Shown: positions 23,545 through 40,829 of the stretch, piece after piece
How the letters are laid out: every line of letters starts with the position of its first letter
How positions within the stretch are numbered: the first letter of the stretch is position 1
DNA from: a virus
Virus record (IMG/VR): IMGVR_UViG_3300045988_167063
Reading direction: 5' to 3' (one strand)
DNA length: 64,000 bases
The notes under the pieces: model-generated
The model's input: only the letters and a program-made list of their open reading frames with translations
What the model was told of the DNA's origin: nothing
Databases searched by the model: none
Position numbers and translations under genes: made by a program

Positions 23545-24663
23545 TTAAATTTTAATAAAATCGTCTAAAATCTTTTTAAATTTTCCATTTCTTATTATAT
23601 CATATTTTAATTTCAATAATGGAATATTATGTTTTTTACAATAATTTTCCTTTATTTTATCTCTCTCGATTTGATTTTGATAATTTACCAACGCTTTATC
23701 TTTAGCAATATTTCCAAAAAGAACAGGTTTATAATGTTGCTCACCCTGCACTTCAATTAAAATATTTTGTTTTGGCAAATAAAAATCAAAGGGATAAGGC
23801 TTAATATTTCCACAATCTTCAAATTTATATTCAGTGATAAAATCAATATTTTTAAATTTTAAATAATTTAACACAATTTTTTCCAATATTGATTTACTAC
23901 ACTCACTACAATAAATGCTTTTTCTTTGTTTTATACTATCCCAACTATGATAAGTAATATTTCCACACATACACTTTATTTTAAGTAGTTCATCACAATT
24001 TTTATATTCTGTACTTAATATTTCTATGCCTAAATTATTAAGCTTTATAAAATGTTTAATATTATCAATTGTATACGGATTAGATTTTATAAAAGGACTA
24101 AACATAGTATCTCTTCTCTGTTTTAAATTAGCATAACAAATCTTACCTTTATATCCATTTTTATCAATAACATCTATTAAAGTATCATTATATTCTATTT
24201 GACTTTTATCAAGAATAGTTAAACCGTGTTCGCTAAATACTTCTTCATATTGTTGTTCGTTCAATCTTTGAGCAATTCCTTTTCTACTTAAATAACATTT
24301 AGGACACAAATAATAATGTCTATTATAAATATTATTCCAATCACTTTTAAATAAATGCCCATTTAAATCTCTAAACAACATTTTAGTTGTCGAGTTTATA
24401 TATTTATGTGCTAAAATTTCAACAGGTATATTATTATTCTTAATATACTGCTTGATATTATTTAACGCAAATGGATTAACTGAATAAAAAGGAGAAAAAT
24501 CATTTCCAACATTAAATCTTGACCAACTTATAGAATATTTATATTCATTTTTGTCCTTAAATAAAACTTTTGTTTTATATCCCTGAAACTTAAAATCTAA
24601 TGGAATATATCCCTTGTTATATATTGAATTTATTATTGTTTCTTTAGTTACTTTCTTACTCAT
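23545..24663 (-). CDS. intron-encoded endonuclease, Vsr-like PD-(D/E)XK nuclease C-terminal domain
   Basis: Two repeated N-terminal modules (SPFYSVNPFALNNIKQYIKNNNI / SPFIKSNPYTIDNIKHFIKLNNL), Zn-ribbon CMCG...CSEC, nuclease motif FDFYLP...ILIEVQGEQH. Confidence 0.65.
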   Translation of the reverse strand: MSKKVTKETIINSIYNKGYIPLDFKFQGYKTKVLFKDKNEYKYSISWSRFNVGNDFSPFYSVNPFALNNIKQYIKNNNIPVEILAHKYINSTTKMLFRDLNGHLFKSDWNNIYNRHYYLCPKCYLSRKGIAQRLNEQQYEEVFSEHGLTILDKSQIEYNDTLIDVIDKNGYKGKICYANLKQRRDTMFSPFIKSNPYTIDNIKHFIKLNNLGIEILSTEYKNCDELLKIKCMCGNITYHSWDSIKQRKSIYCSECSKSILEKIVLNYLKFKNIDFITEYKFEDCGNIKPYPFDFYLPKQNILIEVQGEQHYKPVLFGNIAKDKALVNYQNQIERDKIKENYCKKHNIPLLKLKYDIIRNGKFKKILDDFIKI

Positions 24664-24803
24664 ATATCAATTTCTTTTTTAGACGATTTAATTTTCTTAT
24701 ATTTTCATATAAGAACCGACTATATTTTCATTTTAATAATAAAATGTAGGCTCTTTTGCTTTCGCTACTCTACTCACTTCGTCTACTTTTGTAGCTTATT
24801 CTA

Positions 24804-24832
24804 ATTATACCACAATTAGTTACATTTGTCAA
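24804..24832 (-). promoter_or_regulatory. sigma70-type promoter inside the intron, upstream of the endonuclease ORF
   Basis: Minus strand: TTGACA-aatgtaactaattgtgg-TATAAT (17-nt spacer, TG extended), same style as the early promoters. Confidence 0.4.
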
Positions 24833-25026
24833 GTATTTTTTACTTGATTGTTTTCGATAGTCTGTGAACCTTTCCTACTATTTCAAGTAAGACTTGGCTG
24901 CTGATTATCCATTATTACATATACATAATTTTCAAACATTCACACTTATAGTTTCCTATTATGTTGTAGTCTATGTATCTTTAGGACTTTCCAGCAATTT
25001 AGCCTATACAGGCAAGAAATTATTTC

Positions 25027-25719
25027 ACCTGCTGTTACTAATGCAATAGTTTGCTCAAAACTATTGCCATATGTACTTAAAGCAGCACCTGCCGCTGTTA
25101 AACCTTTACCAATATCACCTGATGAAACAGAAAAATTATTAGAAGTTTCATTGATAGCATCTATAATATGTTCGCTATTTTCTGCTTGAATATCAAAAGC
25201 TTTCATCTGTGAAATAAGAACAGCTGAAGCATCAGAAGCACTTAATTCTTCATCTGCAATATTTTGGTATAAGCTTGATATTTTTGCCAATTGAGCTGAT
25301 TGTTCATCTGAATAACCCGACTTTTTAAATTCTGTCGCAGCTTCAGTCATCTCAATACGAGTTCTTGCGACACTTTCACCCAACTCACCTAATTGTTGAG
25401 TGTATTCATTTAAGCTGTCACCACTTAAATCACTAACTTTTTTAAATTCGGTTAAAGCATCATCAAAATCTTTTACAATTTGAACTGCATTTGTAACACT
25501 TGCGGTAAATAATCCAATTACTGCTGTACTTATACCGAATTTAGCTACTTTCTTGGTAGTATCAATAAAATCACTACCAAGACTTTTTATTTTTGCACCT
25601 AACCCTGTAATTTGGTTAGTAGCGTCTTTAGTGTCAACGCTAATTTTCTTTTTACTTAATTGTTTTTGAACATCAGAAGTATCAACTCTGACCTTCGCAT
25701 TTATGAAAAAATCAGCCAA
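25027..25719 (-). CDS. tail tape measure protein, exon 1
   Basis: TTG start directly after the RuvC stop. Ends ...FEQTIALVTAG. The remaining 26 codons of the ORF-track frame are intron read-through. Confidence 0.8.
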
Positions 25720-35611: not shown

Positions 35612-36298
35612 TTATGCTACTGTTCCGCAACCATTGCAATTACTGTAACCATATACATTTGTTGGGGTTGTATATGGTGAGCAAGTAATATAAGACGGAA
35701 TTGGGAACGGTCTTAAAAGGTTGACAAGGTTTGCAGACTGTGCTTGCTGTGAAAGTTGGAAGTTTGCAGTCTGTAATTCTCTATCTCTGTCCTCAAGTTT
35801 ATCACGAAGGTCTTGCATTGTATTAGCGTTAATCAATGCACGAGTAGCTTCGCCCTCTGCGTGAATTGCAGTAGTAATTTCGCAAGTGTTCTGTGCATTT
35901 TCATAACGAACTGCATCAATGTTGCGATTGGTTGTGCAACAGCAATCTTTCATTTGATAACCAAGTTCTGTAATGCCACCTGAAACACCATTAAAACCAT
36001 TAAGCATAGTTGTATTCATAGCATAAAAGCCATCACACAAACCATTAGAAATGCCATCAAGTTTATTAATAATTTGGTTAGTGTCAAATCCTCTCTGAAT
36101 ATCAGCCTGTGTTGCATAAGTGCCAACAGCACCATTACCATAGCCACCCCAAGCACTACCTCCACCAAAAAGAAGAATAAACACAATTATAAGAGCGAGA
36201 ATACCACCAGCACCACCACTAAGGAAACCGCCGTTGTCATCATTATTCTTTGTGAGAGCGAGAGCATCTCCAATACTTAAACCATTATCCATTGCCAT
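35612..36298 (-). CDS. Gly-rich membrane protein with Cys-rich ectodomain
   Basis: One TM helix (GGILALIIVFILLFGGG), CCC motif (MKDCCCTTNR), coiled coil, C-terminal CSPY...CNGCG. Confidence 0.5.
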   Translation of the reverse strand: MAMDNGLSIGDALALTKNNDDNGGFLSGGAGGILALIIVFILLFGGGSAWGGYGNGAVGTYATQADIQRGFDTNQIINKLDGISNGLCDGFYAMNTTMLNGFNGVSGGITELGYQMKDCCCTTNRNIDAVRYENAQNTCEITTAIHAEGEATRALINANTMQDLRDKLEDRDRELQTANFQLSQQAQSANLVNLLRPFPIPSYITCSPYTTPTNVYGYSNCNGCGTVA

Positions 36299-37399: not shown

Positions 37400-38356
37400 T
37401 TATGCACTAACATTTACTACACAAGCAGTAGTAAGAGTAGTCTTACCCTTTGCTACAATCTCAATAGTAGTAACTCCGTCAGTAGTCTTTGCTGTAACAG
37501 CACCATTATTGTCTACTGTTGCAGATGTACCTGAAGCAGTAAATGTAAGCTTAGTATTGTCAATCAACGAAGGCTGTGTGCCATCTGAATACATTTTATA
37601 AACTTTAATTGTCTGTGTTTCATTATGACCGAGTTCAATATTGCCACCTGCAACTACAAGAGCAGAAACATTAGCAAGCTCATCCTGTCCGTAAATGCAT
37701 TCTGTAATAACTGCATAATAGCCGTGGTCTGAACAGCCTACATTACCTGTAAATGTAGCAAGTGCTGTACCTGAAAGTGAAACAGAAGCAATGCCACTTG
37801 AGGTAAGCGACAAATCTTGTGAGCCTTCAAGTTGGAAATTAGGAATATCAACTACAATATCACCTATTCTTGAGGCATTACTTTCAATTGTTTCGCCTGT
37901 TGCACCACTCTTGAAAAGCGGAATTGTCATTACAGCGTGACAAACAGAAGGAACATAATCTGCATTTACAGTAAATCTACGAGCAGTAGCATCCGAGATT
38001 ACATATTTAATACAAATCGTTGAACCTACAACAAGTCCATCAACTGTTGCTTTATTTTCGCCTTTTGTAAAATCAAATTTCTTATAAGCATCATCAGCTT
38101 CTGTTGACAATTTATACCAACCAATAGTGCCACTTGTAGCAGTAAAATCTTTAGGTGTTTGAGCCACTTCAAGAGTATCTTTCTCTTTTACAGTAAATTG
38201 TTCAACAGTAAGAATATCTGCACCTGCGGTAATACCACCACCACAGCTAAGTGCAATATAATTCAAATCCCAAATTTGGTCTGTAAGTGTAAGACCAAAT
38301 GAGGAGTCGTGATAATACCTGCCGAGGAGAATATTACATTCAAAATAGTTTTTCGG
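37400..38356 (-). CDS. major tail (tube) protein with C-terminal Ig-like (Big_2-type) domain, exon 2
   Basis: Position, size and C-terminal TFTASGTSATVDNNGAVTAKTTDGVTTIEIVAKG Ig-like repeat. The 5' boundary is approximate: alternative acceptor at 38371. Confidence 0.55.
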   Translation of the reverse strand, partial: PKNYFECNILLGRYYHDSSFGLTLTDQIWDLNYIALSCGGGITAGADILTVEQFTVKEKDTLEVAQTPKDFTATSGTIGWYKLSTEADDAYKKFDFTKGENKATVDGLVVGSTICIKYVISDATARRFTVNADYVPSVCHAVMTIPLFKSGATGETIESNASRIGDIVVDIPNFQLEGSQDLSLTSSGIASVSLSGTALATFTGNVGCSDHGYYAVITECIYGQDELANVSALVVAGGNIELGHNETQTIKVYKMYSDGTQPSLIDNTKLTFTASGTSATVDNNGAVTAKTTDGVTTIEIVAKGKTTLTTACVVNVSA

Positions 38357-38739
38357 CATTAAACTATTTTTCTTTTATTATAAAACGCTACTTTTATAAT
38401 GCTATTTCGTTCACACTAATAGCCACATTCTTTCGATATGTGATAAGACTATTTCTTCACCTTTAAATTAAAGGGCAACCCATTTCTTCCTCCAAACACT
38501 TGAGGCTTTACTCTCTCCCGAGATAGTCGTTTAACCTTTTCCTATTCAGAACTTGGCGACCAAACTTCCATTGTTGCTTCTACTTAGGATTTAACCATAT
38601 AGAAATTTCTGTTGTTGTTTCTGCTTTCGCAACATTCATAAAATCATATTTCATATTTTATTGTAGTAACAGAACTTTAGGATTTACTGGTTTTAAGGTT
38701 GTGTCCTATGCTAATCACTTAACATACGGAGCATTAGTT
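38357..38739 (-). mobile_element. group I intron (ORF-less) in major tail protein gene
   Basis: Minus strand contains GGTTAAACGACTATCTCGG and GAAGAAATAGTC core elements. The 5' end GAGT|AACTAATGCTCC mirrors the terL intron GAGT|AAATAATAATGCTCC. Confidence 0.6.
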
Positions 38740-38880
38740 ACTCTGACCGCCCCTTGCTTCCTCATTACTAATAGCCATATTAATACCTGAGTCAGTCAAG
38801 GTTTTGGTAGATACAATAAGATTATTATTATTATCAAAAAGGTCAACATTAGCAACAGATGCCAAAAGTCCTTTAGCCAT
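38740..38880 (-). CDS. major tail protein, exon 1
   Basis: ATG 38880 after AAAGGAG. MAKGLLASVANVDLF...EEARGGQS, then a stop two codons later. Confidence 0.6.
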
Positions 38881-38905
38881 ATATTTTATCTCCTTTATAT
38901 ATAAT

Positions 38906-40030
38906 TTATATAAAATAAAAATGCAATCCATATACGGATTGTCTTTCTTTTCTACAAACTCTGCCGACACAATCTTTTAGTATATTCAATGTCTTTTCAG
39001 CTTGAGAAATGCTTTCAAATACTTTATCTTTTTCGACGCAATAAACCTTTTTTCTTTTTATGTTTTTTGAAGGAGTATATAATCCTCTCTTACTATCTTC
39101 AACATTATAGTTTACAAGGTTTAATTTATTTGCTTTTTTTAATAATTTACAAAACTCAAAAGAAGATATTTTTAACTTTTCTGCCATTTCTTTCATTGAC
39201 AATATACCAAGATTGTTATTAAACATATCAACAGCATAAGAAAGTAAATTGTGGTTAATCAATTCATTTTCTAATTTATCCCAATCAAATTTGTTTAAAT
39301 CAAAATAATTAAATAAACTACTATTTAAAATATTATTTTTTATATATTCAAAATCACTCTTAAAACAATTTATTCTAATTATTTTATAGCCGTTTTGAGT
39401 TGCCATTAAATTTTTTTGTCTATCTATTTCTTCTTGATTTATGTTTTTATTAAAACCTATAATTCCCGTTTTATGAAATATTCCATCCATTTCAATTATA
39501 ATTTTATTATTCTCAATTACAAAATCATAAATCCTTCTATTCGACCACTCAAACATTTTTTCTCGCTCAAAAGGAATGTTTAATTGTTTAAGTAAACAAT
39601 ACATAAATCTATTCGGATAACTATATCCTTTCCCACACTTAGGGCAAGCAAATCCTTTATTAACCAAATCTGATAATTTTTGTTTCCTTTCATTGTGACA
39701 AATAGGACAGACCATATCCACCTCTTGTGAACTTCCAAAGGTATAATTATAAGCTTCTTTTTTATTTTTAAAATAAACTAAATATTGTGGATAAATAGTA
39801 GCAAAATCATTTTTTCCAATAACGAGTTTTCTTCCGCCACAAACACCACATCCACTAACACCTCTCATAATAGCATTTGCCTCATTACAAATGCCCTCTG
39901 TCCCACAAATTTTACACTTGTATTTTATAGGAGAGTGTGCATTTTTATATTTGCTAATTATTTTTAAATTAGGGTTATTTTTACTAACCCTTTTTTCAAA
40001 ATCTTTTTGAGATAACTGATTATATGTCAT
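38906..40030 (-). CDS. free-standing Vsr-like PD-(D/E)XK endonuclease with Zn-ribbons
   Basis: ATG 40030, so no overlap with the upstream gene. CKICG...CGVCG, CPIC...CPKCG, nuclease motif IYDFVIENNKIIIEMDGIFH. Lies between structural genes, just upstream of the intron-containing tail gene. Confidence 0.6.
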   Translation of the reverse strand: MTYNQLSQKDFEKRVSKNNPNLKIISKYKNAHSPIKYKCKICGTEGICNEANAIMRGVSGCGVCGGRKLVIGKNDFATIYPQYLVYFKNKKEAYNYTFGSSQEVDMVCPICHNERKQKLSDLVNKGFACPKCGKGYSYPNRFMYCLLKQLNIPFEREKMFEWSNRRIYDFVIENNKIIIEMDGIFHKTGIIGFNKNINQEEIDRQKNLMATQNGYKIIRINCFKSDFEYIKNNILNSSLFNYFDLNKFDWDKLENELINHNLLSYAVDMFNNNLGILSMKEMAEKLKISSFEFCKLLKKANKLNLVNYNVEDSKRGLYTPSKNIKRKKVYCVEKDKVFESISQAEKTLNILKDCVGRVCRKERQSVYGLHFYFI

Positions 40031-40037
40031 TATAAAA

Positions 40038-40829
40038 TTAACCGTTAATTTGTTGTATTTTCTGTTCAAAAGACTCTGCGTCTGTGAACATTTCTTTATA
40101 TTTATCAACCCTCTTTTTGAACATAGGATGTTTAACATCGTCTTTAACTTCATATTTAAAAGAGGCTTGTATTATCTTTTGTGCAAGATAAATTTCACTA
40201 TTTATACAATGATTAAATATTTGTTCAAAAGTTCTATAAACCATATTATTTATCTGTTCCATTGTATATCCATTTTTACTCATTACATAAGTTTTCTGTT
40301 CTTCTAATGTTGGATTGTGAACTCCTTTATTAACCATTTTACAATATTTTTCATATTCGGCTTTTACATCAGGATTGACATATCTATCATCATAATCTTT
40401 GTCATTTTGAAATAATATTATCTTTTTTATATCATCAAATTCTTTTGCCGATATAATACTTTCTATAATATCATTTTCACCAAGAACTACAATACAATCT
40501 TTGCCATTATCTTTTGATAAAGCAATATTTTTATGAATACATAATTGAAACAACATTGCAAATAAACTTTGAGTATTTATATCTACTAAAACTCGATTGA
40601 TTAAAAATTCTAAATAATTCATTTGAATAACATCAATATCATTTATTGTATTTTTATCAATTTCTAAAAGTTCTTTACAATTTGCATAAATAGGAAAATC
40701 TTTTACTTTAATGGGGTATATAAATATTTCTGCTCCTTTTTTTAGTTCATAAGGAACAGCATACTCGTTAATAAAATAATTTAATTGCAAGTTATCAATA
40801 TCAACCAATACAACCACCACTTTGAGCAT
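40038..40829 (-). CDS. hypothetical structural-module protein
   Basis: Position between head-tail genes and the tail tube gene. Confidence 0.45.
   Translation of the reverse strand: MLKVVVVLVDIDNLQLNYFINEYAVPYELKKGAEIFIYPIKVKDFPIYANCKELLEIDKNTINDIDVIQMNYLEFLINRVLVDINTQSLFAMLFQLCIHKNIALSKDNGKDCIVVLGENDIIESIISAKEFDDIKKIILFQNDKDYDDRYVNPDVKAEYEKYCKMVNKGVHNPTLEEQKTYVMSKNGYTMEQINNMVYRTFEQIFNHCINSEIYLAQKIIQASFKYEVKDDVKHPMFKKRVDKYKEMFTDAESFEQKIQQING

Follow-up and report, generated by a model that had tools for sequence, protein, structure and literature searches.

The window analyzed here is a 64,000-nucleotide (nt) stretch of virus DNA, IMG/VR record IMGVR_UViG_3300045988_167063. Its tail-tube gene is associated with two separate selfish elements that probably cooperate: a group I intron lacking an open reading frame (ORF), which divides the coding region, and a free-standing gene for a Vsr-like homing endonuclease (HE), which lies in the spacer just upstream. 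Under the reading we favor, to which we assign a rough probability of 0.45, the HE and the intron collaborate, with the HE acting at the intron site or close by, in what is called collaborative or trans homing (PMC3984707, PMC2790892). An ORF-less intron beside a free-standing endonuclease gene is the arrangement expected of a collaborative pair, and it is what the locus contains. The original prediction, made from the letters of the DNA, had proposed such a trans-homing arrangement; the adjacency of the two elements stands, while their strict co-inheritance does not. All genes of the locus are on the minus strand, and its principal features are as follows.

38741..38880, minus strand: tail-tube exon 1, codons 1-46 plus 2 nt of Ser47, ending ...CAG AG
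38337..38740, minus strand: ORF-less group I intron, 404 nt, IA2-type with P7.1/P7.2; first base U38740, last base G38337 (omega G, "...GAAUG")
37400..38336, minus strand: tail-tube exon 2, the U of Ser47 followed by NILLGRYYHD... to the stop codon
38906..40030, minus strand: Vsr-like HE gene, 374 amino acids (aa); two treble-clef Zn ribbons, a Vsr/DUF559 core, a helix-turn-helix (HTH) and an I-HmuI/NUMOD-like C-terminal DNA-binding module
38908..40030, minus strand: HE cassette, 1123 nt, in a 37-nt spacer between a 263-aa gene (40829..40038) and the tail-tube gene

The ORF that begins at 38880 (MAKGLL...EEARGGQSN*) stops two codons past the S, in agreement with the start and stop first reported for this gene, and a second ORF, 38359..37400, goes on with ...NILLGRYYHDSS. 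Homologues covering both pieces in one segment occur in Enterocloster phages CB457P1 and PMBT24, at 35-37% identity (tblastn, GenBank phages), the PMBT24 protein being annotated as "major tail protein." IMG/VR contigs carry uninterrupted homologues at 77-96% identity, and the IMG/VR scan returned eight related loci; related contigs are designated below by L and a number. Exon 1 aligns collinearly with the intron-less homologues of L010, L004, and PMBT24. Homologues have precomputed Pfam matches to YomU_Tube, joined on two of them (L026 and L027) by Big_2, and the label "tail tube" is therefore correct. Gene callers break the gene into ORFs of 48 and 319 aa and overlook the intron because its Rfam score lies below threshold.

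The intron borders follow from intron-less alleles. L010 encodes a 96% identical protein in an uninterrupted gene of 1074 nt, while the gene of its near-isogenic relative L003 measures 1478 nt. In a three-way alignment of the window, L003, and L010, exactly 404 nt (38740..38337, with a 4-nt ambiguity) are absent from L010, whose junction reads GGT CAG TCC AAT ATT CTG. In the group of relatives at 77% identity, the intron-less L004 has CAG GGC AAC ATT TTG where the intron-containing L007 has CAG GG/T AAT TGA...ATAATG/C AAC ATT TTG (in junctions here and below, a slash marks the splice site). From these junctions, therefore, the mature message encodes ...GGQ S NILLGRYY..., with a predicted ligated junction ...GGUCAGAG/UAAUAUUCUC. 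The original prediction had put the gap at about 380 nt with an acceptor at 38356 or 38371; comparison with L010 lengthens it to 404 nt (38740..38337), and the intron-less alleles start exon 2 at 38336. Acceptors 38356 and 38371 obey the rule of U(-1) and omega G, but they would add 7-12 residues found in no homologue and lie inside a conserved hairpin. The residues PKNYFEC and the ATG at 38359 also prove to be intronic, in the loop of that same hairpin. On its sense strand the intron stays free of stops for 30 codons at most, so it is ORF-less, as first proposed.

38342..38370, minus strand: 3'-terminal AU-rich hairpin, AAAAUAGUUU...AAACUAUUUU, with the spurious ATG at 38359 in its loop

This hairpin (38370..38342) shows compensatory differences in L007, and it also gives a chance match to mir-303. 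It may correspond to the AU-rich inverted-repeat (IR) stem of those group B IStron copies that lack an insertion sequence (IS); the IR stem of group B IStrons is described in PMC4227781. The intron variant of L043/L044/L063 is without this last hairpin and without the ...AAUG end. Its sole in-frame G-terminated acceptor, UAUAG/, would put four residues (KFIH) into the tube protein.

Comparative evidence establishes the group I structure. Rfam model RF00028 matches over its full length (1-253) but weakly, reaching 18.8 bits where the gathering score is 50 (E=0.025 in a 751-nt region), and the gathering-threshold scan of the whole window gave no match. The minimum free energy (MFE) z-score of the intron is -1.4, and folding energy is uninformative. 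A profile built from six related introns outside the tail gene matches 38744..38369 with E=1.4e-63. The core motif AAACGACTATC-N50-80-GAAGAAATAGTC retrieves 13 IMG/VR loci; four are tail-gene contigs already known, and nine lie in tape-measure (TMP) genes, a terminase gene, and a sheath-like gene. RNAalifold, applied to ten family members, recovered P2, P3, P4, P5/P5a, P6, P7.1, P7.2, and P8; P7 and P9 were joined to this structure by hand before covariation was counted. Over the ten members the structure has 61 pairs that are 94.3% paired, compared with 33-47% in slid controls, and 28 compensatory pairs, compared with 5-8; none of 500 shuffles reached these values. Two core elements carry the P7 helix.

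38522..38536, minus strand: J6/7 and 5' strand of P7, GGUUAAACGACUAUC; GACUA is 38528..38524
38447..38458, minus strand: J8/7 and 3' strand of P7, GAAGAAAUAGUC

The J6/7-P7 element is invariant in 10 of 10 family members, and its GACUA pairs with UAGUC at 38451..38447. Group I core elements had been noticed in the gap from the start, and J6/7-P7 (38536..38522) and J8/7-P7' (38458..38447) bear this out. The helices P7.1 and P7.2, between P7 and P3' (38523..38512 and 38506..38489), contain compensatory changes, and their presence places the intron in subgroup IA; we call it IA2-type. G38337, the omega G, is the last intron base, and all ten family members with an assigned 3' end terminate in G (AAUG/, AAAG/, AUUG/). 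The 404-nt intron is a candidate self-splicing ribozyme, which would use guanosine as its cofactor.

The 5' splice junction of this intron appears to be shifted by one base, as seen in P1.

38729..38743, minus strand: P1, exon GAG (38743-38741) and intron U38740 and A38739, paired with U38733, G38732, and CUC (38731-38729)

The exon ends in G38741, and the U.G pair of P1 lies one base inside the intron, rather than being formed by a U as the last base of the 5' exon. P1 changes in a compensatory way across insertion sites (GAG with CUC, GGG with CCC, AAG with CUU), the MFE fold agrees, and a conserved G is the pairing partner of the intron's first base, which is U except for a C in L019. The rules of U before the 5' site and G before the 3' site cannot both hold here: either the exon ends in G38741 and the intron runs from U to G, or the intron ends in U or C. 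The terminase intron of L014/L016 has the junction KG/QAKL, retaining a Q-A that is invariant in intron-less homologues; the TMP intron of L020 has ARG/L, retaining a conserved Leu; and the intron-less tail allele L004 has flanks identical to those of L007. Three independent insertion sites (tail, terminase, TMP) thus indicate that the exon ends in G. The canonical alternative, U(-1) with U38740 as exon, needs a last intron base other than G (U or C), creates a stop codon in the L014/L016 terminase, and turns the conserved Leu of TMP into Phe; it was rejected.

A junction of this kind is found in group B IStrons, whose 5' exon ends in G, whose U is intronic, and whose U.G pair is shifted by one, beside the loop, with experimental proof for BcISt1 (PMC4227781). 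The window's intron has this same exon-final G and shifted U.G pair next to the loop. By blastn, its core is about 70% identical to introns of Staphylococcus Twortvirinae and, in Clostridium phages c-st and D-1873, to the "Group I catalytic intron"; with group B IStrons the identity is about 72% (nt) over the core. A transposase gene comes after the D-1873 copy and likewise after the intron in Staphylococcus phage Romulus, which makes both of them IStrons, and CbISt3/4 are listed in both c-st and D-1873, in group B (Tourasse et al. 2014, PMC4227781). Judged by these similarities, the window's intron is an IS-less relative of the Twort-like / IS607 group B IStron ribozyme lineage. It shares with group B IStrons (BcISt1, CbISt3/4; PMC4227781, PMC10690162) an IA2, Twort-ribozyme-like core, the intron-initial U, an AU-rich hairpin near the 3' end, and insertion after sites ending in GG or AG. 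Unlike them, it has no IS component (neither TnpA nor TnpB), measures 404 nt, and interrupts a structural gene of a phage. Co-conversion of the exon markers on its flanks is a further difference and suggests recombination, not transposition. Where members of this intron family have ORFs, these differ in position, lying in the P1 loop (L011/L023) or after P9 (L013). L017 has two introns about 50 nt apart in its sheath-like gene, and L020 has several intron-like matches in its TMP region.

The second element, the 374-aa ORF, is an intact Vsr-like (EDxHD-type) homing endonuclease. Zn ribbons and a D...E.DG..H motif had been assigned to ORF 38906..40030 in the original prediction, and the ORF list, Pfam, and the alignment of homologues all support this. 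Pfam gives DUF559 above cut-off (E=8.8e-5) and DUF4379 below cut-off; the PHROG matches, phrog_4538, phrog_559, and phrog_9084, are annotated as HNH or homing endonucleases; and 42 homologues were found, some of which JGI names "very-short-patch-repair endonuclease." The motif D169...E180-x-D182-G-x-x-H186 is present. In an alignment of 20 homologues, the cysteines of the second Zn ribbon, S137-Y-P, W162, D169, E180, G183, D203, and K206 are invariant, and H186 is nearly so. Members of the Vsr-like HE family have equivalents of Vsr Asp51, His69, and Asp97 and an extra invariant Glu (Dassa et al. 2009, PMC2677866); the window's HE has the catalytic Asp, His, and Asp together with the invariant Glu. 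An AlphaFold2 (AF2) model (pLDDT 87.9) finds 1vsr and 1cw0 by Foldseek with probability 1.0 and TM 0.42-0.45 on target, and besides E. coli Vsr it matches AbaSI in its Vsr-like domain, I-HmuI in its DNA-binding part, DUF4379 Zn ribbons, and HTH domains. The multi-domain query keeps the overall Foldseek E-values weak (about 1e-2). Sequence searches of PDB with the HE and with its family profile returned Zn-ribbon matches only, and the Vsr fold became visible through structure prediction. In the window's HE and in its orthologues no domain is lost and the catalytic residues are intact; the protein would be expected to cleave DNA. A clean cassette in one and the same spacer of six lineages, and a decayed remnant in L038 (both below), hint indirectly at site-specific homing. 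It resembles other Vsr-like/EDxHD HEs, with prototype I-Bth0305I, in having a Vsr-fold nuclease and a modular build with separate DNA-binding parts; such enzymes occur free-standing and in group I introns of Firmicutes phages (PMC2677866). It differs from the known ones in its N-terminal double Zn ribbons (DUF4379/DUF723) and its I-HmuI-like C-terminus.

The HE gene was originally described as a free-standing gene directly upstream, and it does lie in the spacer after the 263-aa gene, its insertion point 165 nt upstream of the intron site. The cassette is cleanly absent from L003 and L010, whose flanks are 98% identical, and in CB457P1 and PMBT24 the tube gene stands directly 3' of the homologue of the window's 263-aa gene with no ORF between. 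The ATG of the HE gene comes 7 nt past the stop codon of the 263-aa gene, with no recognizable Shine-Dalgarno sequence (40030-40040); this close spacing and the missing Shine-Dalgarno sequence suggest weak or coupled translation.

The distribution of the two elements was counted in about 37 related lineages, with one entry per state within each cluster of at least 95% nt identity. All four combinations exist. Where the HE is present, an intron occurs at the site (within 6 nt) in five entries and is missing from one; where the HE is absent, the corresponding numbers are 3 and 30. The association is strong by Fisher's test (p=5e-4, 5/6 vs 3/33), with lineages counted without phylogenetic correction and not phylogenetically independent. 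It is also nested: two clusters each contain genomes with neither element, with the intron only, and with intron plus HE, and "HE only" occurs in neither cluster. The presence/absence linkage that had been anticipated is thus found as an association, while co-inheritance is not strict.

Six lineages have an HE orthologue (49-62% aa identity) in this same spacer. L024/25/36, which are the L007 lineage, have the same intron as the window, and L043/44/63 have an intron of the same family. In L026 and L055 the intron is of another kind, placed 5 nt upstream and bounded by a canonical GGU/ junction. L027/28 are intron-less, and their site reads KSNSLLS where relatives lacking the HE have [MKR]ANAILG. 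An intron without the HE is found in L003, the L008 group, and L040, the last having a third intron type, 1 nt downstream, again with a canonical junction. Three unrelated intron lineages are found in a 6-nt span, after RGG, after Q plus 2 nt, and after the S/G codon (L026 5334.., L055, L040 3147.., L059); the window's type differs at the 5' junction from the L026/L055 and L040/L059 types, both of which have the canonical GGU/. In L038 (2615-2953), a 113-aa HE remnant comprising only the C-terminal DNA-binding part lies upstream of an intron-less tube gene and looks like a decay stage of the homing cycle. Other group I introns (Rfam 42-64 bits) interrupt the tube gene at residues ~120 and ~216, in L080 (1785-2161), L083, L062 (1501-1816), and L065 (864-1184). 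Downstream of the L065 intron comes an ORF that belongs to the same endonuclease family.

Traces of co-conversion are found in two sets of near-identical genomes. L003 and L010 differ by 16 substitutions in 9 kb, 11 of them no more than 340 nt away from the intron, and the two do not differ at the HE site. The differing tract corresponds to 38758..38003 of the window and contains the intron and flanking exon substitutions, including the Ser codon, AGC as needed for P1 pairing in L003 and TCC in the allele without an intron. Such a tract is a textbook example of co-conversion, and the clustering, with the HE site untouched, indicates that a break near the intron site was repaired without an endonuclease in cis. 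In the L024 cluster (L024/L025/L007/L036), the 4/4 genomes with the HE share 11 synonymous single-nucleotide polymorphisms (SNPs) at exon-1 positions 56-116, and the 8/8 genomes without it, whether or not they have the intron, agree in the alternative haplotype; exon 2 is mosaic. This exon-1 haplotype is what one would expect if an obligatory co-conversion tract had started at the HE gene and extended to a break near position 116-139. The HE-linked tract ends at position 116 and the intron site is at 139, so that the tract stops about 23 nt short of it. A SNP map of the window against L003/L010 shows no special tract around the window's own HE.

These observations can be assembled into the following scheme. 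The group IA2 intron would self-splice from the tail-tube mRNA, with the 5' cut after G38741 and the 3' cut after G38337, and the Vsr-like HE gene would have entered the spacer 165 nt upstream of the intron site. In a mixed infection, the HE would cut alleles lacking both HE and intron at, or within a few tens of bases of, the conserved sequence coding for RGGQ(S/G)/N(I/S)LLG, and repair from the donor would copy the HE gene and usually the intron as well. The donor's intron, or substitutions in one lineage, would split or alter the target and in this way protect the HE's own genome. Both the cut near the intron site and the protection by the intron are conjectural parts of the scheme. Consistent with it are the nested association, the altered site in the sole intron-less lineage with the HE, and the end of the HE-linked tract about 23 nt before the insertion site.

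Several observations weigh against collaborative homing. All four presence/absence combinations occur; the original prediction had taken a lack of co-inheritance among relatives as evidence against itself, and the lineages with the intron alone (L003, L008 group, L040) and with the HE alone (L027/L028) supply this in part. In the L024 cluster, the HE-linked tract ends before the intron, and the intron is near-identical to that of relatives without the HE, so the two were probably acquired separately. A comparison of nt divergence gives 71% for the HE, 66-74% for the flanking genes, and 85% for the intron, and an HE divergence equal to that of the flanks fits long vertical residence as well as active homing. 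Linkage alone, over 165 nt, could produce the association of HE and intron. Distant HE homologues lie upstream of intact, intron-less structural genes, in the style of autonomous "intronless homing." The intron family is also present at six or more further sites (TMP, terminase, and sheath-like genes) that have no HE of this kind in the vicinity, and so it spreads by other means.

There are two competing explanations. In one, which we regard as unlikely, the HE is an ordinary free-standing endonuclease with its target in the spacer, the 3' end of the upstream gene, or early exon 1; the intron is unrelated, gives no protection, and is sometimes carried along by co-conversion at a distance of 165 nt, as mobE does with the I-TevIII intron in T4, a precedent for trans homing (PMC2790892). 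The distant family members beside intron-less genes and the apparently separate acquisition of HE and intron suit this explanation, and the L024-cluster tract at exon-1 positions 56-116 could itself be a resistant variant of the target. Those positions, however, are identical in the window, which has the HE, and in L003 and L010, which do not, and a target there would leave the window sensitive to its own enzyme. Nor does this explanation account for two unrelated introns, 5 nt apart, that both accompany HE orthologues, for an HE-only lineage altered exactly at the intron site, or for an L003/L010 conversion centered on the intron with the HE site untouched. The other explanation, which seems to us improbable, supposes no functional link: the conserved RGGQG-NxLLGKY segment would be a hot spot for selfish elements, the intron would descend from a group B IStron that lost its IS and would spread by reverse splicing, IS607-type transposition in trans, or ordinary recombination, and the HE might be decaying or serve another role. 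A hot spot would explain three intron lineages within 6 nt and the further introns at tube residues ~120 and ~216; the presence of the same family in several genes, after GGG, GAG, or AAG and with a guide sequence that co-varies, the resemblance to IStrons down to the shifted 5' splice site (PMC4227781), and the truncated HE of L038 beside an intron-less gene also agree with it. Against this stand the strength and nesting of the association, the intact catalytic residues and domains of the window's HE and its orthologues, and the co-converted exon markers between L003 and L010, which imply break repair and not transposition.

A more specific form of collaborative homing holds that the HE settles only where the tail-tube site is already split or mutated, since it needs a broken target for its own immunity; we consider this doubtful. 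If true, it would explain the ordered series of none, intron, and intron plus endonuclease, seen twice, and the recruitment of two unrelated introns 5 nt apart, and the locus would capture the step just before an endonuclease gene enters an intron. Should the intron in addition be an IS-less group B IStron ribozyme, then transposon-borne, endonuclease-borne, and ORF-less introns would be linked in one lineage.

To our knowledge, collaborative or trans homing has been worked out in no more than two or three cases, every one of them in a metabolic gene of a T4-like phage or a cyanophage. The locus described here provides a natural series of near-isogenic genomes with none, one, or both elements, and it departs from the worked-out cases in its endonuclease family, in its location in a virion structural gene of gut Firmicutes phages, and in an IStron-type ribozyme with the rare splice after G. 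The series makes it testable whether free-standing endonucleases and ORF-less introns converge on one site before fusing into a mobile intron, and whether the intron serves as the endonuclease's self-immunity. Each component, and the arrangement too, is of a kind already known; what is new is to find this gene, this host group, and a natural polymorphism of three states together.

The closest known cases pair F-CphI with the psbA intron of cyanophage S-PM2, and MobE with the nrdA intron of Aeromonas phage Aeh1 (Zeng et al. 2009 and Bonocora & Shub 2009, summarized in PMC3984707 and PMC6083498). A patchy distribution among relatives is common to these systems and the present one. The endonuclease here is Vsr-like/EDxHD, whereas F-CphI is Endo VII-like and MobE is HNH; the host gene here is the structural tail-tube gene of low-GC gut phages, with the HE upstream in the spacer; two different introns are paired with HE orthologues; and cleavage at the intron site is here a conjecture. 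In T4, mobE brings about trans homing of the defunct I-TevIII intron (PMC2790892), and here as there a nearby free-standing HE could mobilize the intron by co-conversion without cutting exactly at the intron site. Unlike the I-TevIII intron, the window's intron never had, or retains no trace of, an ORF of its own, the distance is 165 nt, and the system is known at the level of sequence.

A second intron of the window lies in the TMP gene and contains a relative of the HE.

24696..25049, minus strand: TMP group I intron, Rfam RF00028, 50.2 bits, E=2.4e-11, local scan
23545..24663, minus strand: TMP-intron ORF, 372 aa, Zn ribbon and Vsr-like endonuclease

This intron was not detected in the gathering scan of the whole window, and TMP homology resumes at about 23542. 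The nhmmer profile of the tail-intron family did not detect it either, so it belongs to a different intron family. The original description of the HE as a distant paralog of the TMP-intron endonuclease holds: the family profile matches 24666..23548 with E=7.7e-15, where pairwise BLASTP reaches only 0.029. A fused mobile intron, with this endonuclease family inside it, was looked for at the tail site, and none was found there; the family occurs inside introns only in TMP (L013, L020, and the window) and in the tube intron at residue ~216 (L065). The window contains no tRNAs, and megablast of the region against GenBank phages gave no match. Near window position 35938, in a Gly-rich ORF of 228 aa in the structural region (36298..35612), the window has 279 nt fewer than L003 and L010.

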